DNA from: Desulfobacterales bacterium | GTDB lineage: Bacteria > Desulfobacterota > Desulfobacteria > Desulfobacterales > UBA5852 | Direction of reading: 5' to 3' | Length of the DNA stretch: 64,000 nt | Assembly (NCBI GenBank): GCA_963674755.2 | Contig: CAXXVS010000001.1 | Coordinates: forward strand, 192,001-256,000 | Part shown: positions 10,160-23,803 of the stretch, in pieces | Numbering within the stretch: the stretch's first letter is position 1 | How the letters are laid out: every line of letters begins with the position of its first letter | Notes under the pieces: model-generated | Databases searched by the model: none | Told to the model about the DNA's origin: nothing | Seen by the model: the letters and a program-made list of their open reading frames with translations, nothing else | Position numbers and translations under genes: made by a program

Positions 10160-10510
10160 TTGCGAATGCCCGAAGCGATGGCCAGGCGCGCTGATGGTGA
10201 TGACGACGATCGGCGGATCGTTCAAAGAATTCTGGCCGGCGAAGTGGATGCCTTCGCCATCCTGATGACACGCTACCAGAATTACGTGCTGGCCATCGTA
10301 AAACGGCACGCCCCCCACGACCAGGTCGAGGAGCTGACCCAGGAGGTATTCCTCAAAGCCTTTCAATCCCTGGCCGGTTGGCGGGGCACGGGGCGTTTTC
10401 AGTCCTGGCTGTCGGCCATTGCCGTGCGAACCTGCTACGACTTCTGGCGCCAACGCAAAGAGCGCAGCAAACACTTTCACGGACCCTGGCGGCCTGCGGA
10501 TGATAGCTGA
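10160..10510 (+). pseudogene. Truncated ECF sigma-70 factor (region 2 only; region 4 missing)
   Basis: GE..AF..L..RY...EELTQEVFLKAF..L..W.G...F.SWL..IA...CYD.WR, then loses resemblance and stops at 116 aa. Confidence 0.75.
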
Positions 10511-10549
10511 ATATCACCCCGGGAATCCCCGGGGCTCATAAAATGCTAA

Positions 10550-10927
10550 CCATTCATCCCGGTGGTGCATTGTTTTCTGTCCGACGGCACGCGGCGGGTG
10601 GACCTCACGGAAGGCAACCGTAACGGCAAGAACGGCCCCATCGACACCCTTCTGTTTACCGCCCGGGTTTCTCCGGACATCTCCGAGAAAGAAGAATACC
10701 GGCTCTATCGCCAGGCACTTACAAGCCATGGCCTGCGCCGGAACGACATGGCCGGTATCGACCTCAAAACCATCCTGAAGGCCCGCGAAGGGGCGCTTGC
10801 CCTGCTCAAGGTCAATATGGAGCGAGCAGCAGGCCGAAACCATCTGATCGGTTTTCCCGGCGCTAGGGGGCATGCCGGACCGGCCGTGCAACGGGGCTTT
10901 ATCAGGAGGGGGCTACGGCCGACTTAA
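10550..10927 (+). pseudogene. 3' remnant of a hypothetical protein gene
   Basis: Protein-like PFIPVVHCFL..RVDLTEGN.NGKN frame, preceded by an in-frame stop with no RBS; 3' end overlaps the rSAM gene. Confidence 0.45.
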
Positions 10928-12317
10928 CCTCCGTTACGAGTTCGCTAAAATTTAGGGCGATGTCGCGCTCCCGCTCCAGCCGTTTCATGTAGTAGTAAAC
11001 CGCCAGGCTTTCGTCCGGATGGGATTTCCAGGGATGGCAGTGCAGGCGGCCGGTCTGATGATAGAGGTAGGGGCAGCCGCCCATGCAGGTCGGCAGCAGT
11101 CGGCAGTCCGCGCATTCCAACCGGAAAATGTCGCGCGGGCGCCAGTTTTTCGCATTTCGGCGCATGCGGTTGTCTTCGGCCTGGATCAGGTGCCCCACGG
11201 CGGCTGACGCATCGGAGGCCTCGTTCCAGCATTTGAGAAGCCGGCCGTGCGGCGTGACCACAAAGGCATTGGCCTTTTCGGCCATGCAGTAAGTACTGAT
11301 GGCCCGGGGAGCGCGGTAGGCTGGGAACCCCTGATCGATAAATTTAAGCGTTGTTTCCAGTTCGAGCAGGGAGAAGTCCGCATCCGCCAGGCAATCGCCG
11401 GCCACGTCCAGGCAGACGCCGGTGTACGGGTAGGTCCGTCCGAGGTACGGGTGCACCGCACCGGTCAATCCCTTGTGCGCCACTTGCTGGAGAATGTCGG
11501 GGATGGCCTCGCGGTTGGTCTGGTCCACATTGATGCGCAGGTTGATGGGCACCAGGGGCGCGGCGGCTTCCATATTGGCCAGGATGGCATCGAAGGTGCC
11601 GCTTCCATCGGCCAAGGGCCGCCGTTGGTCGTGAACGGCCGGCGGACCGTCGAGGGTGACCTGGGCATGGTTGACCCGACAGGCCTTGAGCCGCTCGGCC
11701 ATGGGACGATCCAGCAGGTATCCGTTGGTGATGATGTGGGATGCATAGCGGGCCTTGTGTTGATCACATATCCGCCGAAAGGCGGCGGTGAGCCATTCGA
11801 TACGGTTGATCTGCAGCAACGGTTCACCGCCGAACCAGGTGACGGAGAGGGTACCGCCTTCGCCCAACCGTTTTTCGATAAAATGCAGCAGGGCGTCCTC
11901 GACCGCGGGACCTATGGTGGCGGACTGATGCTCCTGGTAGCAGTAGCGACAGCGGAAATTGCAGGCCAGGGTCGGGATAATGGTCAGGCTGAGATGACGG
12001 TTGGCTTGCCGGGCCCGGGTTTGCCCGTTTCGCAGGTAGTCTTTTTCTTGCACCCCGACAGGAATCAGAAACCCCTTTTCCAGGAGTTGTTGATGGAGTC
12101 CATGGAATCGGGGGACAATTGCTATGGCAGGGGCATCCAGCAGCGCTGCGGCCTGCCGTGCTTCGGATGCATCCAGGGCCATCAGGTTCAGGGTAAAGAA
12201 GTTGAAGAAGAGAACCGTGCCATCCGGCAGGGCGGTGCGAAAATTATAGGCCGATGGTTTCAGATGACGGCCGGCGTTTGTTTCGGGCGGCGCTTCGATG
12301 GTGGACCTCCCCCCCAA
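10902..12317 (-). CDS. Radical SAM/SPASM-domain peptide/protein maturase with putative N-terminal RRE
   Basis: CNFRCRYC (CX3CX2C); WFGGEPLL; ITNGYLL; QVTLDG; SPASM Cys C..KCW..CADCRLLPTCMGGCP..C; ~90 aa N-terminal extension (KPSAYN...L.EKGFLI). Confidence 0.92.
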   Translation of the reverse strand: MGGRSTIEAPPETNAGRHLKPSAYNFRTALPDGTVLFFNFFTLNLMALDASEARQAAALLDAPAIAIVPRFHGLHQQLLEKGFLIPVGVQEKDYLRNGQTRARQANRHLSLTIIPTLACNFRCRYCYQEHQSATIGPAVEDALLHFIEKRLGEGGTLSVTWFGGEPLLQINRIEWLTAAFRRICDQHKARYASHIITNGYLLDRPMAERLKACRVNHAQVTLDGPPAVHDQRRPLADGSGTFDAILANMEAAAPLVPINLRINVDQTNREAIPDILQQVAHKGLTGAVHPYLGRTYPYTGVCLDVAGDCLADADFSLLELETTLKFIDQGFPAYRAPRAISTYCMAEKANAFVVTPHGRLLKCWNEASDASAAVGHLIQAEDNRMRRNAKNWRPRDIFRLECADCRLLPTCMGGCPYLYHQTGRLHCHPWKSHPDESLAVYYYMKRLERERDIALNFSELVTEVKSAVAPS

Positions 12318-12341
12318 AGAATTTCCGGGTTGGGGGCCCGA

Positions 12342-13103
12342 TCAATTGGTTTTAGGTTGTACATTGAGCGTCTTCGGCTGGACGGGCTTCCCGCCCATTA
12401 CCTGCTGGGGGGTGATGAAGCGTTTCTGGCGGAGCATGTTCTGCACCTGGAGACCCAATTGCTGGGTGTTGGTGGTGTGGAAATGCTCCATCAGGCCCTG
12501 GACATAGGGGTCGTTGCGGAATTGATTCAACAGGCCGGTTATGTCCGCCTTATTTTTGGCGCAGCCGCTGAGTTCCGGGCATGATTGCGACGTGCACTCA
12601 TTGTCACCGCAGGTATCAAGATTGCCGCATTCCTGACCGTTGCAGTCGTTCGTGCGGCATTCTCCGCCGGTCGTCCCCCCTTCGTCACCATAATCCTGCC
12701 CACTGCAAACATTGGTGGCGCAGGTATCCAAGGCCGGGCACGAATCACCGCCAAAGGCGCCGCAAATGGAAAATTGAGGACAACTGCTGGCGGCATTCGC
12801 ACCGGTGACGCCGCCCAGGGAATGGACGGCGCAACCCATACCCCGGGTGGCACCGGGTATCCCCATGCGGGCGGCCGGCTTCAAAGGGGTAATCCGTCCG
12901 AATTGGCTTTGAAAGACCTTGAGGTCGAAGCCGGACAACTGGACCTTGAGCATTTTTAATTTTGTTTGAGCGCTTTTGGGCAGGGTCCCGGCCTCGGCCG
13001 AGAGCAGGCGCCGGAGATCCAATACGCTGATGCCTGCGGCCAGGGCCACAGTTTTTAAAATATGGTTCAGGGCTTTGCGGCGGTCCATATTCTCGGTGAG
13101 CAT
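12342..13103 (-). CDS. Tat-signal, Cys-rich repeat protein; putative rSAM substrate
   Basis: MDRRKAL twin-Arg signal ending SAEA; 13 Cys in residues 91-181; directly upstream of the rSAM/SPASM gene. Confidence 0.8.
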   Translation of the reverse strand: MLTENMDRRKALNHILKTVALAAGISVLDLRRLLSAEAGTLPKSAQTKLKMLKVQLSGFDLKVFQSQFGRITPLKPAARMGIPGATRGMGCAVHSLGGVTGANAASSCPQFSICGAFGGDSCPALDTCATNVCSGQDYGDEGGTTGGECRTNDCNGQECGNLDTCGDNECTSQSCPELSGCAKNKADITGLLNQFRNDPYVQGLMEHFHTTNTQQLGLQVQNMLRQKRFITPQQVMGGKPVQPKTLNVQPKTN

Positions 13104-13196
13104 TGGTCATTTCCTTTCTTTTGTGCGGCAAGAATGATGATAGTCAGGTGCTTACCGTCAAGACATCCTTTCGATCTATTTCCCAAGAGCCATGGC

Positions 13197-14969
13197 CTAT
13201 TTGCGAAGCCTTGTGGCACTGAAAATTCCCAGCATGATGAAGATGGCAGAAAAAATATACGGCACGATAGTGAACCCGGTCCCGCCCGGGACCAGCACGG
13301 CCTGTTTGGGTCTGTCGGGATTGTAGTAGACTTGGACGGGTTTGCCTTTCGGGTAGCGGGCAACGATCTGTTGGGCATTGCCGGAGGATGACGAAAATGA
13401 AATTCGGGTATTTTTGTGGCTTTGCCCTCCAACCTGGTATTGATAGGCGATTTTGGGGTATTGCACCGCCTCGGTTTTTTTGCTGCCGTCACTGCCGGCC
13501 GTGCTATCGTGCGCCTCGATTTCTGATCGAACAATGACGCCCTCAGCCGTCGGCCACGTTTTGCTTTCCATGCGGGTTGCATAGGCGTTGTAGCTGAACA
13601 GGGCGATAACGATGCCGATGGCCGGGAAGATGACAGCCCCGGCAAGTTTTTCAGTGGCGGGGGCCATAAACCCGCCGATCAGGAAGAAAACCCCGAACCC
13701 CAGAATGATCAGGCCTGCCAGAACCGCATCCATAAGCAAAGTCACCACACAAATCAGTATGAGTAAAACTCCGGCAATCCGTTTCAACCACCGCTTGGCC
13801 GTTTGGATTTTGGGCGCCATGGCGCCGTCGGCTTTACTGACGAATTCTTTGAAAAGCGCCTTTGTCTCGTCTTCCGAGTAACGCTTCGGCCTTGCGGGAT
13901 CGGAGAAAGTCGGGGGGGCGGCTTCCTTGTTGGGTGTGGAATCGGCCAAAGCGGCATTGGCCGCCGCTACGCTTCCGGGTGCCGACGGACTTGGTTGGGT
14001 CCAGATCCGGGTGTTCATATTCAAATCGTCAACGAGGTCTATGGCCAGCTTCAGGTCGTTGTAATATTCCTGGACGTGGGCGATGTTGAGCAGGCTCTCC
14101 ATGATTTTGGGTTCGAACAACTCTTTTTCGAACGGAATGGCCACATGCAGTTTGGACGCGGAAAAGGAAAGCCGCATGTCTTTGCGGCTGCGGGTGCGAA
14201 ATTCAACGATGCGGCGCATCAGGCTGGTGGAAAGAATATAGCGGGCTTCCACCTGATCCTCGCCGTAGACCACAAATAATTTTTCGAATTCCGGGTCCTC
14301 CATTTTGACCAGTTGGCCGTTCGGAACGTTGAGGGCCTGAAGGGCCTGTCCTAAATCGCCGAACAGTTTCTGGGCCGTGTCCGGCAGGACAATGGTCGTC
14401 CCCTTGAAGGCTTTGTTGAAATCCGCCACAAAAAAGAGGCCTCTGAAAATGGGCGTGTATCTTTTTTTGGTTCGGTGGGTGTTGCTGGCACTTGAACTTT
14501 GCCGGATGATGTCCACCCGCTTGGCGTGAATCTCCGAGAATTGGACGGCGGTCTCTCCCAAGGTGCCGCTTACCAGGTCGTCCCCCCCATACTCACCGGG
14601 GCGGTCCTTGAACAAATGGCTGGCAATGAAATCTTCTTTGGGCACCCTCCCGGCCTTGTCGTATCGTAAGCGCTGATCGACAAAGGCGACGATCCTGGGG
14701 ATAATGGTTTCCTTGAAGCCGGCATGATAGTCCCGGTAATATTTAATGTGCCACGGGAAAAACGTAAAAATGGCGGAGACAATCAGAAACATGAGCAGGA
14801 AGATGGCATTGAGGCCGAATTGGCCGGCAATGAACAGAAAGACCAGATTGACACCCACCAGAAGACATATCGCCTGAATCAATTTTTTCTTTACGGTTAG
14901 CCGCTGGGCCTCCAGCTTCTCCAAATCCGGCAACAGATCGGATTGATAAAATGTTTCCAGCGATTTCAT
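13197..14969 (-). CDS. Membrane protein, DUF3137-like domain fused to a DUF3592-like domain
   Basis: F.GLF..ADFNK.F.G.T; EDPEFEK.F.VY..DQVEARYILS; C-terminal W.T..G.I...YQY.V.G...V.VYYNP..P..AVL. Confidence 0.8.
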   Translation of the reverse strand: MKSLETFYQSDLLPDLEKLEAQRLTVKKKLIQAICLLVGVNLVFLFIAGQFGLNAIFLLMFLIVSAIFTFFPWHIKYYRDYHAGFKETIIPRIVAFVDQRLRYDKAGRVPKEDFIASHLFKDRPGEYGGDDLVSGTLGETAVQFSEIHAKRVDIIRQSSSASNTHRTKKRYTPIFRGLFFVADFNKAFKGTTIVLPDTAQKLFGDLGQALQALNVPNGQLVKMEDPEFEKLFVVYGEDQVEARYILSTSLMRRIVEFRTRSRKDMRLSFSASKLHVAIPFEKELFEPKIMESLLNIAHVQEYYNDLKLAIDLVDDLNMNTRIWTQPSPSAPGSVAAANAALADSTPNKEAAPPTFSDPARPKRYSEDETKALFKEFVSKADGAMAPKIQTAKRWLKRIAGVLLILICVVTLLMDAVLAGLIILGFGVFFLIGGFMAPATEKLAGAVIFPAIGIVIALFSYNAYATRMESKTWPTAEGVIVRSEIEAHDSTAGSDGSKKTEAVQYPKIAYQYQVGGQSHKNTRISFSSSSGNAQQIVARYPKGKPVQVYYNPDRPKQAVLVPGGTGFTIVPYIFSAIFIMLGIFSATRLRK

Positions 14970-15028
14970 GATTACTCCCTTTCCGGACGCCATGCTTTCC
15001 AAGACAGGTTGAGATGGGGTTTTCCTAT

Positions 15029-15586
15029 TCAGGTCTCAAAGAGTCGGCCGACATCGACGGGTTGTCCCTCCCGGGCGTCAATTTCGAAAAACACCTTTTG
15101 CTGGTATCGCATCAGACCGGCCACCAGATTGCTGGGAAACATTTCCAGCGCATTGTTGTAGTCTTTCACGGAAGCGTTGTAGGCTCGGCGGGCCGCTGAA
15201 ATTTGTTCCTCCACTTCGTTCAGGGAAGCCTGCAGGTTCAGAAAGTTTTCGCTGGCCTTGAGATCCGGGTAGTTTTCCACGGCCACCATGATCCGGCCCA
15301 GGGCGCTGGATACGGTTTTATCCAGTGCCACGGTTTCGGCCTCGCTCATCTGACCGGAGGTCGCCTTGGTGCGCATGTCGGTCACCTGGGTGAGGACATC
15401 CGCTTCGTGCTTCATGTAGCGCTTCACCATTGCGGTCAGGTTCGGTATGAGATCGAAGCGCTTCTTGAGCAGCACATCTATGCTGGAAAAGGCGTTGGCC
15501 ACCTGGTTTTTCTTGCCCACCAGATTGTTGTAGAGCAAAACAAGAACGAGTACGATCACACAGGCAATGACGATGGCGATAATCAC
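15029..15586 (-). CDS. lemA: LemA family protein
   Basis: YN.LV..KN.V.NA.S.IDV.LKKR.DLIPNL; ENYPDLKA..NF..LQ; ISAARR.YN; FPSN. Confidence 0.95.
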   Translation of the reverse strand: MIIAIVIACVIVLVLVLLYNNLVGKKNQVANAFSSIDVLLKKRFDLIPNLTAMVKRYMKHEADVLTQVTDMRTKATSGQMSEAETVALDKTVSSALGRIMVAVENYPDLKASENFLNLQASLNEVEEQISAARRAYNASVKDYNNALEMFPSNLVAGLMRYQQKVFFEIDAREGQPVDVGRLFET

Positions 15587-15598
15587 AGTTTTCCTCCT

Positions 15599-16201
15599 CT
15601 ATTTAAAAATATCGTTGAAGAGGCTGCGCACGCCCTTGCGGACTTCCTGGATGGTGCTGTCCTTGGCTTCCTCCCGGGCGGCCTGGCCCACATCCTTAGC
15701 GTCATCGGTAACCGCTTCTCCAACCGCCGAGGGCTCCGTTTGCTTCTGGGGCGAGTTGGATGACGATGATGCGCTGGCCTGGCCACTGCAATTGCCGATC
15801 CGCCCGCCGGTGATGTGATTGGTGACCTGCATGTTGCTGCCTGCGATCGCCATGTGCATGGAACCTTCCATGGAATCACCATGATAGGTCACCTCGCCGG
15901 TACCCTCCATCTGACCGCCCTTGCCGCCGCAGACGATTTTCCATGAGATCGTGTCGCCGTTGGTGACAATGTCCGACACCTGGCATTCCTGAGAGGCGCC
16001 TTGACTCATGGGAACCAGATCGTCATTGGTGATGCACTGGGTATGGGTTTCGGGCGGTATCTGCATGTTGGCGGCACCCTGCATTTCAGTTTCGGTGGTA
16101 AATTCCCATTGGCCAGGATTGAGATTTGGTCCGGCCGTGGCAGTGCCGATCGCAAGGAGAATTGACAGCAGCAAAGCGTTCATAAGGTAGCATGTTTTCA
16201 T
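15599..16201 (-). CDS. Secreted DUF3617-like protein
   Basis: Signal peptide; PG.WE.T; TQCIT; C...D....GDTISW...C; G.RIG.C. Confidence 0.8.
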   Translation of the reverse strand: MKTCYLMNALLLSILLAIGTATAGPNLNPGQWEFTTETEMQGAANMQIPPETHTQCITNDDLVPMSQGASQECQVSDIVTNGDTISWKIVCGGKGGQMEGTGEVTYHGDSMEGSMHMAIAGSNMQVTNHITGGRIGNCSGQASASSSSNSPQKQTEPSAVGEAVTDDAKDVGQAAREEAKDSTIQEVRKGVRSLFNDIFK

Positions 16202-16226
16202 AGGGACCTCCTTCTGTAGTGAAGAA

Positions 16227-16598
16227 TTATTTACAGACATCCAGTTTGCAGGTTCTTTTGATGTCCTGCTTTTTTATGCGATCGCACAGTTTGCAATCTT
16301 TTTGCAGGAGGGCCAGCCGGTAATAGCACCATCCGTGGACGCCGTCGGCCTTGGGCCAGTAGGTGAGAATATTTTCGCACAGGTCCGGATCGCCGATTTT
16401 TTCAACTTCCTCCTGGTAACACCACGGTCCTGGTCTGTCCGTCTGGGATTGACACATGGCATAAATCGGGTCCTCTTCGGCATGAAATGTCGTTGCCGCC
16501 GCGAGAACCACTAGTATGGCAAGCGCCAGACAGATCCAGCCTGTTCTTCCGAGATTTGAAAACCCATTATGCACTTTTTGTTTAGGCATTTTCCCCAC
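16227..16598 (-). CDS. Small exported protein with 8 mature-region Cys and a tandem WCY repeat
   Basis: Signal/anchor helix; WCY-x9-D-x2-LC-x2-I occurs twice; GTG start after GGAG. Confidence 0.7.
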   Translation of the reverse strand: MGKMPKQKVHNGFSNLGRTGWICLALAILVVLAAATTFHAEEDPIYAMCQSQTDRPGPWCYQEEVEKIGDPDLCENILTYWPKADGVHGWCYYRLALLQKDCKLCDRIKKQDIKRTCKLDVCK

Positions 16599-16693
16599 AT
16601 TGCTCCTTTTTTTTTTGGTTTTCCCCCGGTGTACCACCCCGCGTGGTCATCCCGGCGGCGGCCGGAAGTTTCACAAAAAGTTCAGCTTGTCTC

Positions 16694-17191
16694 CTAATAC
16701 TTCCCACTTGGCGTATTGCTGGCCGGCTTGGGAGTAATTGGGTCCATGGGCTTGGGGTAAGCCGGGTCCAAGGGCTTGGGGGTCTGCTGGGTTGTGGGCG
16801 TGAGCAAGCGTTTCAAGGTATCGGTATCGTTCCGATCGGGCCGCCCGCTGCTGTCGGTAAAGCGGGTGTGCGTTTTCACCACAAGCGCGTTGCCGGACAG
16901 GCTGATGGTGAGATCGCGCACACAGGAACTATTTTTATAGCAGGTCGCGAGGTGGCCATCCGTATAGGTGCTGGCCGGTTCCCATCCCCAGTCGTAATCC
17001 TTTTTGGGGCGAAGTGGACCCCAGGCATGGACGTGGGCTTTGGAATCAACGACACTGATCTCGATTTTGGTGATGGCTTGGGGGACGGAAGCGAGGTTGA
17101 TCCAGTTGCCGTTGTACAGGTTAAAGTTGGCGGCGAAAAGGGGGCCCGCCATCACGAATAGAATTGTTGCGGTGCTTACGAGATGCCTCAT
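16694..17191 (-). CDS. Secreted hypothetical protein
   Basis: Signal peptide (LFA|A); G.W.N...ITK.EI...VHAWG...DWG beta-rich domain; Pro-rich tail. Confidence 0.75.
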   Translation of the reverse strand: MRHLVSTATILFVMAGPLFAANFNLYNGNWINLASVPQAITKIEISVVDSKAHVHAWGPLRPKKDYDWGWEPASTYTDGHLATCYKNSSCVRDLTISLSGNALVVKTHTRFTDSSGRPDRNDTDTLKRLLTPTTQQTPKPLDPAYPKPMDPITPKPASNTPSGKY

Positions 17192-17243
17192 GCTTTTCTC
17201 CCTTCTCGCTGAATTTTAAACTATTGTCGGATTACACGTACGG

Positions 17244-17903
17244 TTACCATGAAGCGACACAGCGATTGTTCCCGCGGTGACGATTGGCTTCATGGAAGGT
17301 GTTATCGGGATCGACATCAACGATGAGTTTGACGTATTGAATCGTGCCGACTTTAAGGCCGTACTCCATTCGTGGAGACAAAACGACCCAATGGCGCTGG
17401 TCAATAGCGGTGCCATCGTTTTTGGCTGATATGACTTCTTGTTCAATCAGGGTGTTATTTTCCCTGTTGACCAACTCGATTCTGATAGGGATTTGTTTGC
17501 CTGGTTCAATGGGTTTTGTGCCGTTGTTTTTCAATGCAACGTTGAAGGAGAGTATCGTGAGCGTGTGCTTACCGACCGTTGTGATGGTGCGGTTGACAAC
17601 CTTTGTATCGTGCAGCTTTGCGGCGAGATCATATTCAGGTATATCCAATTTTTTGACGGGCGGTTTATCGACCTGCTGGTATTCCTTCGCGGGCGCCCCC
17701 GATGGCAAGGGCACGGTCTTGGTTGTTTCCCCTGGGAGAACTTTTCCCGCGGGGACAGTGGTTGTTTTCCCAGAGATGGGTTTGTCTGTGACGGTTTGGC
17801 TTGCCGCCAGGGCGGAGGAGACGATTACGCCGTTCAACAGGAAAAGCAACCCCGCCAGCGCGACCACGGGAAAATACTGCTTGATTAAAGATGGGTTGGA
17901 CAT
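17244..17903 (-). CDS. Secreted protein with C-terminal CARDB/Ig-like domain
   Basis: Signal peptide; DL...V.LKN.G...VD.DN...E.N..NN. Confidence 0.7.
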   Translation of the reverse strand: MSNPSLIKQYFPVVALAGLLFLLNGVIVSSALAASQTVTDKPISGKTTTVPAGKVLPGETTKTVPLPSGAPAKEYQQVDKPPVKKLDIPEYDLAAKLHDTKVVNRTITTVGKHTLTILSFNVALKNNGTKPIEPGKQIPIRIELVNRENNTLIEQEVISAKNDGTAIDQRHWVVLSPRMEYGLKVGTIQYVKLIVDVDPDNTFHEANRHRGNNRCVASW

Positions 17904-17915
17904 GGTTTCCTCCTA

Positions 17916-20099
17916 TCATTGACAATCCTCATCAAGGTCTTTCAAAAGACCGTCCATTTCTGTCCGGTAGGCCTCCAACTCCCAATCACCTAGCATGTCC
18001 ATGGTCTTCAATTCCCCCTGCACCTTGGTGTACTGCCGCACATGAACCCTTTCATGGCGGAGGGCATTGTCCAGCAAGGAGCGGCCGGCCCATTTGCCAT
18101 CGCAAGCTTCCCACTCCGATAGAATGGCATCGGGATCCACGCTTTGGGTCAATTTGCCGTTTGCGTCATATTTTTCCAATACGATGTCTTTACCGCCGAT
18201 CTGCGCGTGGATTTCCGTTCCCAGAAAGTGCTCGCTCTGCTTATCAAAAACCGGGCATGTCTGGAGCAACGTTTTGACCCTTTCATCTTTGAGGGTGGCG
18301 TCGGTTAGAGTGGTTTGGTCGGCGGGCATGGTTGTGGCGCTATCGACGATCTCATCAAGGGTGCCGGCTACGTCCGCCCTCGTAGCTTCTGCAACCATGT
18401 CGATTTTTTCCTGAATGGAAAGATCCGTGTTGTCAGCGGCGTCCGGCACCAGTGCTTCGATTACCTGTTGGTAAGCGTATTGGCGGCCGTTTTCATTCGT
18501 AACAAAATCTTTAACAGCATCCCGAATGGTCTGATTGCCGTAAGCGGCCCGGACAATTTGGATATAATTGACCCGGTTTTGCATGTTGGCGCAGTCCCGC
18601 TCCTTGTTTTCAACGGTTAGGAAATCTTCCTGGGGTTGGGATGTTGGATCGTTTTCCGATAGCTGCCAACTCACCGTATAGGTCACATTCATGTTGCCGC
18701 CGGCCGGCGGTTTCAATGGTTTTTGATTTTGAGTTGCGGCAATATCGAAGATAGAGATGCCCAATGAAGGCGGGCATAGCCCCTGATCGTCCGCCTGCCA
18801 GGTGCGGGACCCAATAAGACGTCCGGAAGCCTGTGGTTCGGCCCGGATGCCGATGCGGCATCCGGGAAAACCCCGATCCACCGTTGTGTAGGCGCACGCC
18901 GTTTTTCCCGCATCTTTTTTTCGGCCACGAATCCGCTTTCGATCCCCTCCCGGTCCTAGTACCAATTCATAGTAGTCCGGCAGCGCCATGGCGCCTTTAA
19001 GAGCGGATAAAAATTTTTGCTTGTCTGCCGACAGGTTTTGCAGATAGGGCGCGGCTGAAGCGGAATAACGATGAACTTTAAACAAACTTTCCTCGGATAG
19101 TGGTATACTGCTCCCGCCATGATATTCGACAATCAAAGGGTCCTGGCAGTGGCCGGATGGTATGGGCTTCAGGCTCGTTCGTTGTTCGTTGTAAACATAG
19201 GACACGGTGCCACCTTCGACCCTGTAGGTCGTTGCGGGTTGAACGGCGCCGTAGGCGCCTTGAATGGTGGGGCTGGCCTCTTCCCAAATTTTCATTTGTC
19301 CTAATAGGTGCAGGCTAATCGATCCGGTATACGCATATTCGTCCGGCTCGGTCACCCTCCAGCGGACGGTGGCCTGGATAAAAGCATAAAGCCTGTCCGG
19401 CAGATCGTCGTGGATATCAAAGGCGCTTTCAGACGGAAAAGCGTCGTCCGAGGACGGGTCTTCAGTGTTCGGATCGTCATCCTTGGGCGGCGGGGAAGGA
19501 TCATCCGGCAGGTTGCCGCCGTCTTTTTTCTCCATGACGGAGCCCTGGCGATGCGGGAATTGGTAGCGACGAATCAAGTCGCCTTTGCCGATGGGCGTCC
19601 CCTCGATGGTGACGCTGCTATTGGCGGAGAGCTTTTTCTCCTTTGGGGCCGCGACAGGTTTCGTGGAATTTTGATAGCGCTGGGCCGTTTGCGGATCCAA
19701 GGATTTCTCGATAGACGACTTCAGGATCACGGCAAGGGTGACATATGTTCGGTCACCTTTGTCTTCCGCTTTGATCGTAAATGTGTTCCCCTGATGCCGC
19801 AGCATTACGGCACAGATTTTGCCGGCGGACATGATCTGGCCAGCCGGCCATCCTTTGGCCTGCATGGCCTGATGGTAGAATTCGACGGCCTCGGCAGGCG
19901 TGATATCCACCTCGAATTCGAAGCGCCCGGAGCCCTCGAATTGCTTTTCCTTTATAATTCGGGCCCCCTCGATCAGGGGGATATCGGTGCCCGCAAGGGT
20001 GGCGGCCTGACCTATGACCGGCAGGCCTGTTAACACGATGGCCAGGATTGCAGCGGCCTGAAAGAAGAGACTGATTCGCTTTTCAAAAGAATACGTCAT
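17916..20099 (-). CDS. Large secreted multidomain protein with C-terminal HExxH metallopeptidase-like motif
   Basis: Signal peptide; acidic Pro-rich linker; HERVHVRQY...ELEAY; alternative start at 20183. Confidence 0.7.
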   Translation of the reverse strand: MTYSFEKRISLFFQAAAILAIVLTGLPVIGQAATLAGTDIPLIEGARIIKEKQFEGSGRFEFEVDITPAEAVEFYHQAMQAKGWPAGQIMSAGKICAVMLRHQGNTFTIKAEDKGDRTYVTLAVILKSSIEKSLDPQTAQRYQNSTKPVAAPKEKKLSANSSVTIEGTPIGKGDLIRRYQFPHRQGSVMEKKDGGNLPDDPSPPPKDDDPNTEDPSSDDAFPSESAFDIHDDLPDRLYAFIQATVRWRVTEPDEYAYTGSISLHLLGQMKIWEEASPTIQGAYGAVQPATTYRVEGGTVSYVYNEQRTSLKPIPSGHCQDPLIVEYHGGSSIPLSEESLFKVHRYSASAAPYLQNLSADKQKFLSALKGAMALPDYYELVLGPGGDRKRIRGRKKDAGKTACAYTTVDRGFPGCRIGIRAEPQASGRLIGSRTWQADDQGLCPPSLGISIFDIAATQNQKPLKPPAGGNMNVTYTVSWQLSENDPTSQPQEDFLTVENKERDCANMQNRVNYIQIVRAAYGNQTIRDAVKDFVTNENGRQYAYQQVIEALVPDAADNTDLSIQEKIDMVAEATRADVAGTLDEIVDSATTMPADQTTLTDATLKDERVKTLLQTCPVFDKQSEHFLGTEIHAQIGGKDIVLEKYDANGKLTQSVDPDAILSEWEACDGKWAGRSLLDNALRHERVHVRQYTKVQGELKTMDMLGDWELEAYRTEMDGLLKDLDEDCQ

Positions 20100-20187
20100 T
20101 CGCTTGCGGCCTTTCGTCCTCTGGAAAAACACTATCGAAGTCACTGAGCATAGTTGACAAGTCAGACGAGCGTCTCCTTTCATATGA

Positions 20188-21699
20188 TTATTCCGCTAAG
20201 GGAAATGCCGCGCTAATGGTCTCGCTCTCTCCCGCGCTTATCGTAACCGCCTCGAATGTCAGAATCTGTTTCGTGTCACGGATATTGGTAATTTGCACCT
20301 GGTAAGTCCCTTCCGGCAGTTCGACGACGCGGGTACCATTCTTGGGCCAGTTGCTCCAGTTATCGAAAACCTTATTGCCGGCCGCGTCCTCGATTTTAAT
20401 CGGGGTCGCAAAGGGTTCCCCGTCGTGGGTCGCGACAATCGTCAGTTCGCCGGCCAGAAATTCGACGGTTTTTTCAACAGAACCGCCGGACGGGATTTCC
20501 ACATCTTCCATGACAACTTTGGGCTGACCGGCGATTCCACTGCCCCACACCTCGAAACGATAGATGCCGGGTACCAACCGCCTGTTCAACTTCCCCGTAG
20601 AAGAATTGGTATTTTCGTTGTGGAAGTGCTTTTTATCGCCCTGGTGATAATAGAAAACGTTCCCACTGAAAGGCTTACCGTTGAGCAGGGTGGTGATAAA
20701 AAAGGTGCCGTCCGAAAAATCAGCCGTGCGCTCCACCGTTTCGCCGGCCACGATGACAATCTCTTTAAAACGCACCGTCGGGGTCTGGCCGCCGCTGACA
20801 CCCGTGTCCTTAAGTTCCGCCGTATAGGTGCCGGGTTCCAGTCGTATCGCCACCCTTCCGGTTTCCCCGGATGTACTGTCCTTCGCCCATTGCTTGCCGC
20901 TTGCCGGATCGGTCAGGGTGATAAACGTACGGAAGGGCTTGCCGTTCTTGGTGGCGGTAACCTGGAGGATCCCGTAGGGCGGGGTGGCCTTTTGCACCAC
21001 CTCCTGAGCCGCCGCCAGGAATTCGCCGGCATTGCCGGCCGTGTAATATTGCCCGCCGCCTTCCCGGGCCATGCATTCCAATTGCTCCCGCTCTTCTTCG
21101 GTGACATCGAACCCGATGACATGCATGACAAACTGGATGCCGGCCGCCTTCAAGTCTTTCACCAGGCCGCAGGGATCCGGATCGCAGGTTTCCTTGCCGT
21201 CGGACACCAGAATGATGGTGGTCGTATCCTCCAGGTGTTTGATGCGCTCGGCGGTGAGCCGCACCGACCGGCTGATGGGGGTCTTGCCCTTGGGGCTCAG
21301 GGCCTGGATCCGGCCCACCATCTTCTCCTTGTCCAGCGGTCCCAGGGGGATCAGTTCCTCCACGTCGTCGCAGTCACCCTTGCGGCGGTGGCCGTAGGCC
21401 ACCAGCCCCACCACGGCATCGTCCGGCAGCTCTGTCACCAGACCGGTGAGCACTTCCTTGGCAATGGCGATTTTGGCCTGATCTTCCACCTGGCCCCACA
21501 TGGAGCCCGATGCGTCCAGGATGAAAACGATGTTCCCGGCCGTTGCGGCGGCCGCCCTGTTTTCGGAGCCGATGGCCTGGTCCTGGGCACTGGCGGCCGT
21601 ATCGGCTACCACCGTGCTTCCCGCTGCTGCAGAAGCGAGAGAGAACAGCAACGCGAACATTGCCGCGAACCCGGTCAGGATCATATGGCGTGTCAGCAT
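20188..21699 (-). CDS. Secreted vWA domain protein with repeated C-terminal beta-sandwich domains
   Basis: ILDASGSMWG; AYGHR..GDC.D; P.G.TPI; VSDG.ETC..DPC; three G.PF...L.PG.Y repeats. Confidence 0.9.
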   Translation of the reverse strand: MLTRHMILTGFAAMFALLFSLASAAAGSTVVADTAASAQDQAIGSENRAAAATAGNIVFILDASGSMWGQVEDQAKIAIAKEVLTGLVTELPDDAVVGLVAYGHRRKGDCDDVEELIPLGPLDKEKMVGRIQALSPKGKTPISRSVRLTAERIKHLEDTTTIILVSDGKETCDPDPCGLVKDLKAAGIQFVMHVIGFDVTEEEREQLECMAREGGGQYYTAGNAGEFLAAAQEVVQKATPPYGILQVTATKNGKPFRTFITLTDPASGKQWAKDSTSGETGRVAIRLEPGTYTAELKDTGVSGGQTPTVRFKEIVIVAGETVERTADFSDGTFFITTLLNGKPFSGNVFYYHQGDKKHFHNENTNSSTGKLNRRLVPGIYRFEVWGSGIAGQPKVVMEDVEIPSGGSVEKTVEFLAGELTIVATHDGEPFATPIKIEDAAGNKVFDNWSNWPKNGTRVVELPEGTYQVQITNIRDTKQILTFEAVTISAGESETISAAFPLAE

Positions 21700-21736
21700 A
21701 ACGGTCTCCTTAGTATGGGGTTCCAGTTGCCGGTCC

Positions 21737-23803
21737 CTAACGCGTGTTTAAAGATTCCAGCATCTCGACGATGGCTTGGCGGTTTTTCTGTTCAAAAGGT
21801 TTCTCGCCGCGCTGCGGCGCCCGGGCCCAATCCAGGGCGGTCTGGCCGCTGCCATCCCGGGCGTCGATGTCGGCGCCGTGGTCCAGGTAGAATTTCAGCG
21901 GCTCAAGCCACGCTTTTTGGGCGGCGTGCATCAAAAGGGTTGTGCCGCTTTTGCTGATGGGCTTGTTGACATCCGCTCCTTTTGAAAAAAGGATTGCGAG
22001 GGTTTCCCGGACACCGGGTTCGAACATGCCATTCTTGGTTTTAAAGGCCAATTTCCAGACAGCGGTTTCCTCGTTGACCGGGGCGCCCGCCTCCACCAGC
22101 ACCGCGATCACCGCCTGCCAGTGTTTGCGGTTGCTCTGGGCCTGGGAAAGGGCGTCGTTGCCGGAACGGTCCCGGTAGGCCAGATCGCCGCCCCGGGCGA
22201 TGATCATTTTGACCATGTCGGCCGTGCTCAGATTGGCCGCTTTTTGCAGCAGGGGGGCGCCGTAGACCCGGGCATTGGGGTCCATCCCGTTGTCGATCTG
22301 TTCCCGGACGGTGGCGATGTCGCCATCGTTAAAGGCCTGGATAATGATTTTTGTTGCGGCCTTGTCGAGGCCGGCCGCGTTTGATCCCGGCGTGGTTTTC
22401 GAAGCGCGGCCGACGGAGGCGTTTGGCTGGGTGCGAACGATCTTCGGCGCTGAAGGCGGTTTGGCGGCCGCCGGGGGATCGTTTGCCGCACGTGCTTCTT
22501 TGGGGGCTGCGGCCGGCTGTTCGGCGCGATATGCGACCCCGTCGTTTTCTCCGGCAACACTGATTTCGCATGTCCGAATCTGCTGCTCTGCCGCAAACGG
22601 GAAGGTTTCGCTGACGCCATTAGCAATGCGGCACTTTTTTTCGAAGACCTGGTCCTGATAGTCGCGCCGAAAGCATTTGAGGGTCACCACGGACGCCGGT
22701 GCATCCTGGCTGTCGCCGGTTACCGTGATGGTCGTGGGCCGGGCGGGGTCGAGGCTGATCCCTGTGGCGCCCAGGATGCTCAGATGCAGATAGCCTTCTT
22801 GGATTTTTCGGCCCCTATCGAACGCGAACGGATCGGCTTCGTTGGTCACGGTGGCATAAACGAGCCCCTCTTCGACCTGAACGGACACCCAGGCGGTTTT
22901 TTTCGCCTTTTCGATCTCCAAACGTTTGGTTTGTCCTTTTTTGACGAGGTCCACTGGGTGGGGTGGGGCGGCATCCCAAGCGCCGTCTTCGGGGATGATG
23001 CGGTAGCGGCATATTGATCGATCGGTAAGGTTTTTAAGAACAAGTTTGAGCGGCCTGTGAGGGTCGACGGCCACCTGAATTTCTCCTCCCTTACCGATAC
23101 GGCGCCCCCAGGGTGCGGTGCCTTTGACGGTTCGGGTAATGGCCGGTTTGTCCTTCCTGGCCGGGGTCGGCCGTTCTTCCTTGGCGTATTCTTCGGGAAT
23201 TGCAAAAACCGATGCGTCGATCGATCCCGCCTCAATGTTGCTCAGTTCCAGGGTCACATCCCGGATATTGGTTTTGACCTCGAAGGCGCCATCTTTACGA
23301 CCGCTGATGATATGGGCTTTGACCGGGAAAGCGCCCAGCTCTCCGGCGAACCACACATCCGCCAGTTTGGCGTCCTGGTCGTAAAACCCATCGTGATCGC
23401 AGGCATAGCCCGCGATCGTGTCCGTGCCGATCCTCCGCCGGGTGACATTTTCCTGCAGGTAGGTGATGGCTTGAAAGGGATCTATCAAGTAGGCGCGCGG
23501 AGAGAAGTTTTCAAACGTGTCATAGGTGCGGTTATTGGGGTTGAGAAGCAGCGTTTCCCCTTTGGTGCGATCCACGAGCACGACGGGTCCTTTGGCAACG
23601 CTGTCACCCGCGACGGTCAAATCCATCAGGTAGCGACCATCGGTTGCGTAAATTTTGCCTGTCACATCGCTGTCGAAAATCCGTGCCGTAATGTCGGCCG
23701 TAAAATCCTTTCCCCAGGTGGATCGGCCGGCCAGCAAGATCCCTAAAAAGAAGAGAAAAAAACGACAACCGATTCGTATTCCCCCAGGTTTCGTTCGCGT
23801 CAT
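21737..23803 (-). CDS. Secreted DUF4412-like plus ankyrin-repeat protein
   Basis: F.AD...G.DTI.GY.C; S.F.IP.EY; ankyrin G.TLLM.AA...GADI.ARD..GQTALDWA. Confidence 0.8.
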   Translation of the reverse strand: MTRTKPGGIRIGCRFFLFFLGILLAGRSTWGKDFTADITARIFDSDVTGKIYATDGRYLMDLTVAGDSVAKGPVVLVDRTKGETLLLNPNNRTYDTFENFSPRAYLIDPFQAITYLQENVTRRRIGTDTIAGYACDHDGFYDQDAKLADVWFAGELGAFPVKAHIISGRKDGAFEVKTNIRDVTLELSNIEAGSIDASVFAIPEEYAKEERPTPARKDKPAITRTVKGTAPWGRRIGKGGEIQVAVDPHRPLKLVLKNLTDRSICRYRIIPEDGAWDAAPPHPVDLVKKGQTKRLEIEKAKKTAWVSVQVEEGLVYATVTNEADPFAFDRGRKIQEGYLHLSILGATGISLDPARPTTITVTGDSQDAPASVVTLKCFRRDYQDQVFEKKCRIANGVSETFPFAAEQQIRTCEISVAGENDGVAYRAEQPAAAPKEARAANDPPAAAKPPSAPKIVRTQPNASVGRASKTTPGSNAAGLDKAATKIIIQAFNDGDIATVREQIDNGMDPNARVYGAPLLQKAANLSTADMVKMIIARGGDLAYRDRSGNDALSQAQSNRKHWQAVIAVLVEAGAPVNEETAVWKLAFKTKNGMFEPGVRETLAILFSKGADVNKPISKSGTTLLMHAAQKAWLEPLKFYLDHGADIDARDGSGQTALDWARAPQRGEKPFEQKNRQAIVEMLESLNTR

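Follow-up and report, generated by a model that had tools for sequence, protein, structure and literature searches.

The window analysed here is a stretch of 64,000 nucleotides from a Desulfobacterales bacterium (GenBank assembly GCA_963674755.2, contig CAXXVS010000001.1, positions 192,001 to 256,000), whose reverse strand carries two adjacent genes, the first encoding a cysteine-rich precursor protein and the second a radical S-adenosylmethionine (rSAM) enzyme. By analogy, we suggest that the pair rather likely serves to make a protein stapled by thioethers, in the manner of the Crp system known from Methanococcus voltae, in which the enzyme CrpC (TIGR04463) puts ranthionine-type links into CrpA, a protein of 28.8 kDa (PMC13692751, 2026). 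The modification, its chemistry and the export of the product are proposed from genes, homologues and models.

In sediment bacteria, the genes for the precursor and the enzyme form one unit that is inherited, gained and lost together, as shown by comparative genomics. The precursor alignment led to 25 loci. In 20 of them the enzyme gene lies directly downstream of the precursor gene, with 42-76% identity to the query enzyme, and in the other five the contig ends 0, 1, 56, 219 and 240 bases past the precursor; independent cases of linkage are fewer, since several loci are near-duplicates. A first-pass annotation of the same DNA had paired the two genes as substrate and maturase, and the co-occurrence expected of such a pair was found, as 3 of 61 related genomes have the precursor and these same three have a close enzyme (74-76% identity). 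A fourth genome among the 61 has only enzymes at 30-35%, which belong to another cluster, and 400 genomes of the phylum yielded one further carrier, in which a distant 205-aa precursor with eight Cys is followed by the enzyme gene. In a congeneric genome (G002) both flanks are present 221 bases apart and the two-gene unit is absent. Titled records with the precursor belong to Desulfobacteraceae, Deltaproteobacteria, Myxococcota and Bacteriovoracaceae metagenome-assembled genomes (MAGs), and neither viral contigs nor plasmids gave a relative. In the Myxococcota MAG with locus L004, a 51% identical enzyme orthologue starts at a contig end that has a repeat in common with the end of L004.

We also note several further arrangements. 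The repeat in the Myxococcota MAG (L004 7860-8059 and the end of L026) is palindromic, resembles repetitive extragenic palindromic elements and stands between the precursor and enzyme contig ends; the gene ahead of the precursor in L004 is presumably DnaB-like. Two tandem precursor paralogues (~50% identity to the query) share a single enzyme gene in L017 (1016-2620), and in L016 (1420-2417) the enzyme gene seems split over two frames by a frameshift or an assembly error. Contig C194 of genome G024 (L035-L037) carries four tandem rSAM/SPASM genes at 30-35% identity to the query enzyme, with an open reading frame (ORF) for a 45-aa Cys-rich peptide upstream and a transglutaminase-like gene, and appears to be a separate, uncharacterised cluster resembling those of peptides synthesised by the ribosome and modified after translation (RiPPs).

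The first-pass annotation had read the second gene as an rSAM/SPASM enzyme with an N-terminal extension of the size of a RiPP recognition element (RRE), and this assignment is borne out. The enzyme has a CX3CX2C motif at residues 119-126 (numbered, as throughout, in the frame of the TTG start) and passes the SPASM model TIGR04085 with 46.9 bits against a cut-off of 27. In its AlphaFold2 (AF2) model (pLDDT 92) the RRE-like region is a β3-α3 domain of three strands and three helices, and the model aligns from its first residue with CteB (residues 1-448), the closest PDB entry, with a Z-score of 27.3 and a root-mean-square deviation of 4.2 over 388 aligned residues, anSME being nearly equal at 26.8. 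Each of the seven SPASM Cys is conserved in 119-120 of 120 orthologues, Trp364 in 119 and Asn365 in 114, and an extra pair, Cys302 and Cys309, in 120 and 119, respectively. Six catalytic-proximity positions have been defined with CteB, whose residues there are F-F-T-S-H-Q (PMC10288494); the orthologues have Y-F-I/V-T-W-N. Named families were tested with the query and 31 of the 120 listed orthologues, and neither the query nor any of the 31 passed an equivalog cut-off. The best NCBIfam match of the query is TIGR04463 (251 bits, cut-off 525), next to Clo7bot TIGR04334 (247.9 and 600), geopeptide TIGR04280 (182 and 400), CefB (178 and 600) and PapB NF047865 (108.6 and 340), and it scores 59 and 65 bits with the QhpD and CteB family models (cut-offs 453 and 425). 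The 31 orthologues score 239-327 with TIGR04463, and most of them score highest with TIGR04334, the best at 388.7. A predicted complex of the enzyme and the precursor scored 0.00, which counts neither way.

The precursor, a protein of 253 aa whose 13 Cys lie between residues 91 and 181 and whose C-terminal part is free of Cys, is as the first-pass annotation described it and matches no Pfam or NCBIfam family. It has 20 close homologues, and a profile search extended the family to 88 representatives at 50% identity. The earlier view of a protein-sized substrate is supported. Motif counts below refer to 82 members, 6 of the 88 representatives with fewer than six Cys being left out, and positional conservation to an alignment (A2) of 72 near-full-length members that omits fragments and a sister family. 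Judged by its codons, the precursor is under purifying selection, since 88 codon differences from the L002 counterpart are synonymous and 40 are non-synonymous; all 13 Cys codons are kept. The ~50-aa segment previously taken for a leader contains, at residues 43-73, the best conserved region of the protein (mean top-residue frequency 0.58 versus 0.44 in the core), modelled as helices at residues 43-56 and 61-68. The C-terminal follower domain is likewise conserved (Asp198 in 70, Leu204 in 71 and Leu216 in 69 of 72 members) and is modelled with a pLDDT of ~88-91 at residues 191-220, the precursor model as a whole having a pLDDT of 60 with a low-confidence core. Several structural alignments, all of them weak, handle leader and follower as one discontinuous unit.

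Searches with the precursor model found nothing at E 0.001 or better with Foldseek and nothing at Z 5 or more with VIA. In the Atlas search the first matches of the precursor (0.86) are CXXX-repeat targets of rSAM enzymes, which we regard as leads only, and the follower domain had no Atlas match. A Nif11-like origin of the C-terminal helices was considered and rejected, as none of the 72 members has such a Pfam match. The sister family has the core and the follower in common with the precursor family (HHalign probability 99.7 for the follower) and differs in its leader. An alignment used in the context of the sister family (A5) gave matches in 11 of 301 genomes, of which the L004 gene alone is genuine; the 12 other loci are low-complexity repeats with no enzyme.

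The first-pass annotation had proposed that the core carries PapB-type CX3[D/E] motifs, and its residue assignments are accurate: Asp or Glu follows at +4 of Cys122, Cys133, Cys149 and Cys159 (Asp) and of Cys154 and Cys165 (Glu), and Ser at +4 of Cys91, Cys108, Cys170 and Cys175. In the query these six motifs exceed the mean of 1.9 after shuffling within the core (p=0.0035, for one of 12 offsets tested). Most core Cys, however, are five residues apart, and because of this the +4 position of one Cys is often the -1 position of the next. Across the family (753 core Cys, 82 members, 500 shuffles) Asn or Gln occurs at +3 355 times against 139 in the shuffled cores, whose maximum is 169; 21 of the 82 members lack CX3[D/E] entirely and 29 have one, that is, 50 have none or one. 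In the wider alignment +4 Asp/Glu is found in 15-29 of 47-72 rows at Cys133, Cys149, Cys154, Cys159 and Cys165, and these residues mostly just sit between two Cys. The proposed register is therefore not supported, the +4 Asp/Glu not being conserved, an outcome that the first-pass annotation had itself named as refuting. By contrast with +4, the query has Asn, Gln, Leu, Phe or His at +3 of all 13 Cys, and in the 21 close sequences Gln at +3 of Cys154 and Cys170, Leu at +3 of Cys159 and Asn at +3 of Cys165 are invariant. The triad pattern of C-x2-N-x-C-x2-Q-x-C-x2-L is present in 62 of the 82 members, with Gln tied to the preceding rather than the following Cys (55 versus 11) and Leu likewise (81 versus 12). 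On these sequence comparisons the conserved unit of the core is C-x2-N-x-C-x2-Q-x-C-x2-L-x2, with its motif at +3 rather than +4.

Some points weigh against a simple +3 register. In the 21 close sequences +4 Asp/Glu is kept in 14, 20, 17, 12, 9 and 20 at Cys122, Cys133, Cys149, Cys154, Cys159 and Cys165, thus well at Cys133, Cys149 and Cys165, and family-wide it is in slight excess (132 versus 112 shuffled, p=0.016). The register of Asn is unsettled, because its tie with the following Cys (64) is as frequent as that with the preceding one (49). In CrpA, too, the acceptors have been narrowed just to four-residue motifs and not to any single residue (PMC13692751).

The likeness to the Crp system extends to both partners, and CrpC gives the best fit to the enzyme in active-site residues and SPASM Cys. 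CrpC is an RRE-rSAM-SPASM enzyme with seven SPASM Cys in the same spacing (Cys333/352/403 and Cys390/393/399), and by eye its catalytic-proximity residues, F-F-V-T-W-E, are identical to those of the present enzymes at three of six positions and conservatively replaced at the other three (PMC13692751). Its substrate, like the precursor, is an adjacent protein of 25-30 kDa with a three-Cys repeat and C-x2-Q, and neither system has a dedicated transporter; the CrpA repeat has 17 residues (5-5-7) with a C-x-x-Q/D motif, and the modified motifs span 4-5 residues that start at or near a Cys, with the Cys before the acceptor (PMC13692751). The two systems differ, as compared by eye, in that CrpC has the equivalent of Cys302 alone and lacks Cys309, in that CrpA is without the twin-Arg segment and the helical C-terminal domain, and in that the leader has no visible likeness to the N-terminal domain of CrpA; moreover, the +3 residues are Asn, Gln or Leu here and Gln or Asp in CrpA, and no CrpB-like gene is found here (PMC13692751). 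The paper's table of CrpA homologues has no member of the present family by organism name or by eye, and the available text and supplements mention neither 'Desulfo' nor a signal peptide (PMC13692751). On this comparison the system most likely works like Crp; it lies outside TIGR04463 and has a different precursor architecture.

We envisage that the RRE/SPASM enzyme would bind the conserved N-terminal region of the precursor, and that a 5'-deoxyadenosyl radical and a Cys thiol at the three-Cys auxiliary cluster I (AuxI) would produce several Cys-to-side-chain links in the core, which would be of ranthionine type at -2 Da each. Such stapling, through RRE/SPASM binding and AuxI-held Cys, is in our view probable. 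For the acceptors we lean slightly towards residues at most three positions downstream, mostly +3 Asn, Gln or Leu and not +4 Asp or Glu, and some Cys may stay free. The leader and follower helices would pack as a single cap domain, and the stapled, folded protein would leave by the housekeeping twin-arginine translocation (Tat) system and be released by signal peptidase, giving a periplasmic or extracellular protein of ~22 kDa, not a short peptide. As a guess, the product may be a protein of the envelope or one that binds metals, resistant to proteases and redox conditions; metal binding by CrpA is itself a proposal (PMC13692751). A tentative and rather doubtful extension of this scheme is that such proteins, stapled in the cytoplasm and exported by Tat, form a class of their own: an rSAM subfamily whose enzymes have one more ligand Cys would form Cys-to-Asn/Gln/Leu thioethers in series on a 16-residue repeat, the leader and follower helices would make up a clamp that offers the core to the enzyme and is retained in the product, and anaerobes would gain rigid secreted proteins free of disulfides.

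The export step meets the strongest alternative, which concerns the fate of the product and is independent of the acceptor question: the precursor would be stapled, its twin-Arg segment would be a Tat-derived recognition leader, and the product would stay intracellular or its core be cut out as a peptide by host proteases. The query has the minimal Tat motif, R-R-x-hydrophobic-hydrophobic (PMC10924467), as RRKAL; the RR pattern is present in 69 of 79 proteins, Arg8/Arg9 in 65 of 66 alignment rows and Gly24 in 70 of 71, and the segments have cleavage-like A-x-A/Q ends. The top PDB match of the family profile, a weak one (E=0.27), is the Tat signal peptide of NapA, and the sister family has canonical Tat signals in some members, P0080 passing TIGR01409 with 22.4 against 16.7. 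Several features speak against a working export signal. Ala replaces the consensus Phe in 51 of the 69 proteins, the hydrophobic region ends in Asp or Glu in 44 of them, in the query after an uncharged run of 11 residues (then Asp), and a run of at least 13 is found in 32 of 69 as opposed to 9 of 10 RRxF controls, selected by that motif from the same genome. TIGR01409 does not match the query and weakly matches 3 of 72 members. TatC is present in the genome of the window and in 5 of 5 further carriers, but it is a common gene, occurring in 11 of 14 control genomes as well. The segment is conserved like the core (0.51 versus 0.44), which is unusual for a disposable signal, several sister members lack it, and CrpA has its RRE site at the very N-terminus (PMC13692751). 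On the other hand, no exporter or peptidase occurs among the 12 neighbours scanned in the window, as the first-pass annotation had stated, and none recurs among 30 chosen neighbour ORFs at other loci (single genes for an ABC ATPase, a MacB/FtsX permease and Peptidase_MA_2, at different loci and all on the opposite strand); the follower, moreover, is strongly conserved. We thus regard the recognition leader as a serious but unlikely alternative. Tat export is plausible but the signal atypical, so that on the sequence features the odds are about even, and export of the whole stapled protein followed by signal peptidase release is marginally favoured. The sister members without a twin-Arg segment, all with the same core and follower, are P0075, P0085, P0090, P0101 and P0103.

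An alternative to stapling itself is that the core is a β-solenoid held by disulfides or by metal or Fe-S thiolates, and that the enzyme, with its AuxI cluster fully ligated, performs C-C linking, epimerisation or oxidation. The core has a 16-residue repeat, residues 107-187 gave weak matches to solenoid structures (Z 3.3 or less), ladders of Asn, Gln and Cys are also what a solenoid would conserve, and N-x-C anchoring occurs at 56 of 186 six-residue spacings. On the enzyme side, the invariant extra Cys309 could occupy the AuxI site and alter the chemistry, anSME is on a par with CteB as a structural match, and the score with TIGR04463 is far under its cut-off. These points tell against thioether formation of the Crp kind. 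Yet 34 of 70 members have an odd number of Cys, with no pairing bias, the core model behind the solenoid matches is of low confidence, CrpA is likewise predicted to be a β-helix and nevertheless receives thioethers, and CrpC makes thioethers in spite of its Cys302 equivalent (PMC13692751). We therefore prefer stapling, and consider a disulfide- or metal-held solenoid improbable. Least probable is the PapB-like formation of Cys-to-Asp/Glu thioethers at CX3[D/E], for which the six motifs of the query, the three well-kept sites and the small family-wide excess would speak, and against which stand the unconserved motif, the low score with the PapB model and a Trp364-Asn365 pair at what we take to be the positions of His377 and Arg378, with which PapB is modelled to hold the acceptor carboxylate (PMC10739248).

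Other known systems are more distant. The freyrasin pair PapA/PapB shares an RRE/SPASM maturase and, in the query protein alone, six CX3[D/E] motifs, and differs in its conserved motif, its His-Arg pair and a substrate that is not protein-sized. Clo7bot, CefA/CefB (NF038108/NF038107) and geopeptide, systems known here by the names of their models alone, lie in the same enzyme neighbourhood with scores all under cut-off. CefA resembles the core in part through a Cys at every fifth residue; its 65-aa model matches the core only, with weak matches in 14 of 72 members (those listed 11-17 bits, cut-off 30) and none in the query. QhpC/QhpD and CteA/CteB also have thioether-forming RRE/SPASM enzymes, QhpC being a cross-linked protein subunit (PMC13692751, PMC10288494), and differ in the catalytic-proximity residues; no amine dehydrogenase genes are found among the neighbours scanned.

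The first-pass annotation called the cassette a candidate new system. The family is indeed without a name and passes no named cut-off, but the claim needs tempering because a publication of 2026 already describes rSAM stapling of a Cys-rich protein of 29 kDa (PMC13692751); a literature search, with subscription journals mostly outside its coverage, found no publication on the present cassette. rSAM thioethers on whole proteins have been documented very rarely, in QhpC and CrpA (2026), and what is added here is a nameless family, strictly organised as two genes and comprising 88 clusters at 50% identity. The cassette is small enough to be cloned in one piece, and trypsin is computed to split the core into two readable Cys peptides (aa 89-150 and 151-183), which would make it easier to map the links, the step at which the CrpA study met its limits. 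With the cassette one could ask whether enzymes of this kind take amide and aliphatic side chains as acceptors, and whether a modification of RiPP type can be joined to export by Tat with no dedicated transporter or peptidase. The features of the cassette are collected in Table 1.

Table 1. Features of the precursor and maturase genes in the window
Feature	Position	Strand	Basis
Gene for the precursor (253 aa), with twin-Arg signal-like helix, helical leader, Cys-repeat core, helical C-terminal domain	12342..13103	-	ORF call, homologues
Segment resembling a twin-arginine signal, aa 1-38, with RR (aa 8-9) and A-x-A (aa 36-38)	12990..13103	-	alignment
Leader-like helices, aa 43-73, K-x-L-K-V-x-L ... 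V-F-x-x-E-F-G-R	12885..12977	-	conservation, model
Core rich in Cys, aa 91-184, with C-x2-N-x-C-x2-Q-x-C-x2-L-x2 as tight repeat from aa 128	12552..12833	-	Cys counts, alignments
Follower domain, Cys-free helical, aa 188-236, D-P-Y-V-Q-x-L ... F-N-V-T-T	12396..12542	-	conservation, model
Shine-Dalgarno GGAGG, with ATC as probable, non-canonical start of enzyme	12297..12310	-	conservation; start inferred
Maturase, RRE-rSAM-SPASM, subfamily without name, ~465 aa	10902..12299	-	hidden Markov models, structure model, orthologues
RRE-like winged-helix domain, aa 19-86 of TTG frame	12060..12263	-	AF2 model, CteB alignment
Pair of extra Cys, C302-x6-C309, between the barrel and the SPASM domain	11391..11414	-	orthologue alignment
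SPASM domain, seven Cys (344, 363, 415 / 402, 405, 411, 427), W364-N365 after AuxI Cys	11037..11288	-	orthologue alignment

The enzyme ORF as called runs from 10902 to 12317 (-) with a TTG start. We doubt this start because all five close sequences that were aligned have GGAG and CCATCGAA unchanged and do not conserve the in-frame TTG, and because residues 1-6 are unstructured in the AF2 model; on sequence grounds, the start is probably the ATC at 12299 behind GGAG, the TTG at 12317 being wrong. In run X1, which possibly is the source sample, one contig is identical (0 differences) across 10761-13370. The same run has a joint that skips 10794-13196, a mere hint supported by 34 letters.

Upstream of the cassette and co-directional with it lies a run of genes for predicted envelope or secreted proteins (13197-23803, -; DUF3137 with DUF3592, LemA, DUF3617, vWA, DUF4412 with ankyrin, and several without a family), which is kept in the genus even where the cassette is absent and partly adjoins the cassette in L003. 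Two proteins from this region, one of 755 aa (17916-20183, -) and a Cys-rich one of 136 aa with a signal-like N-terminus (16227-16637, -), match no Pfam or NCBIfam family and are conserved in L001, L002 and L006. On the other side of the cassette, an extracytoplasmic function (ECF) sigma ORF of 116 aa (10160-10510, +) has region 2 only, its L002 counterpart of 214 aa having region 4, and beside it lies the truncated remnant of a 234-aa gene (10514-10891, -); ~530 bases of G002 are missing from the window in this region.

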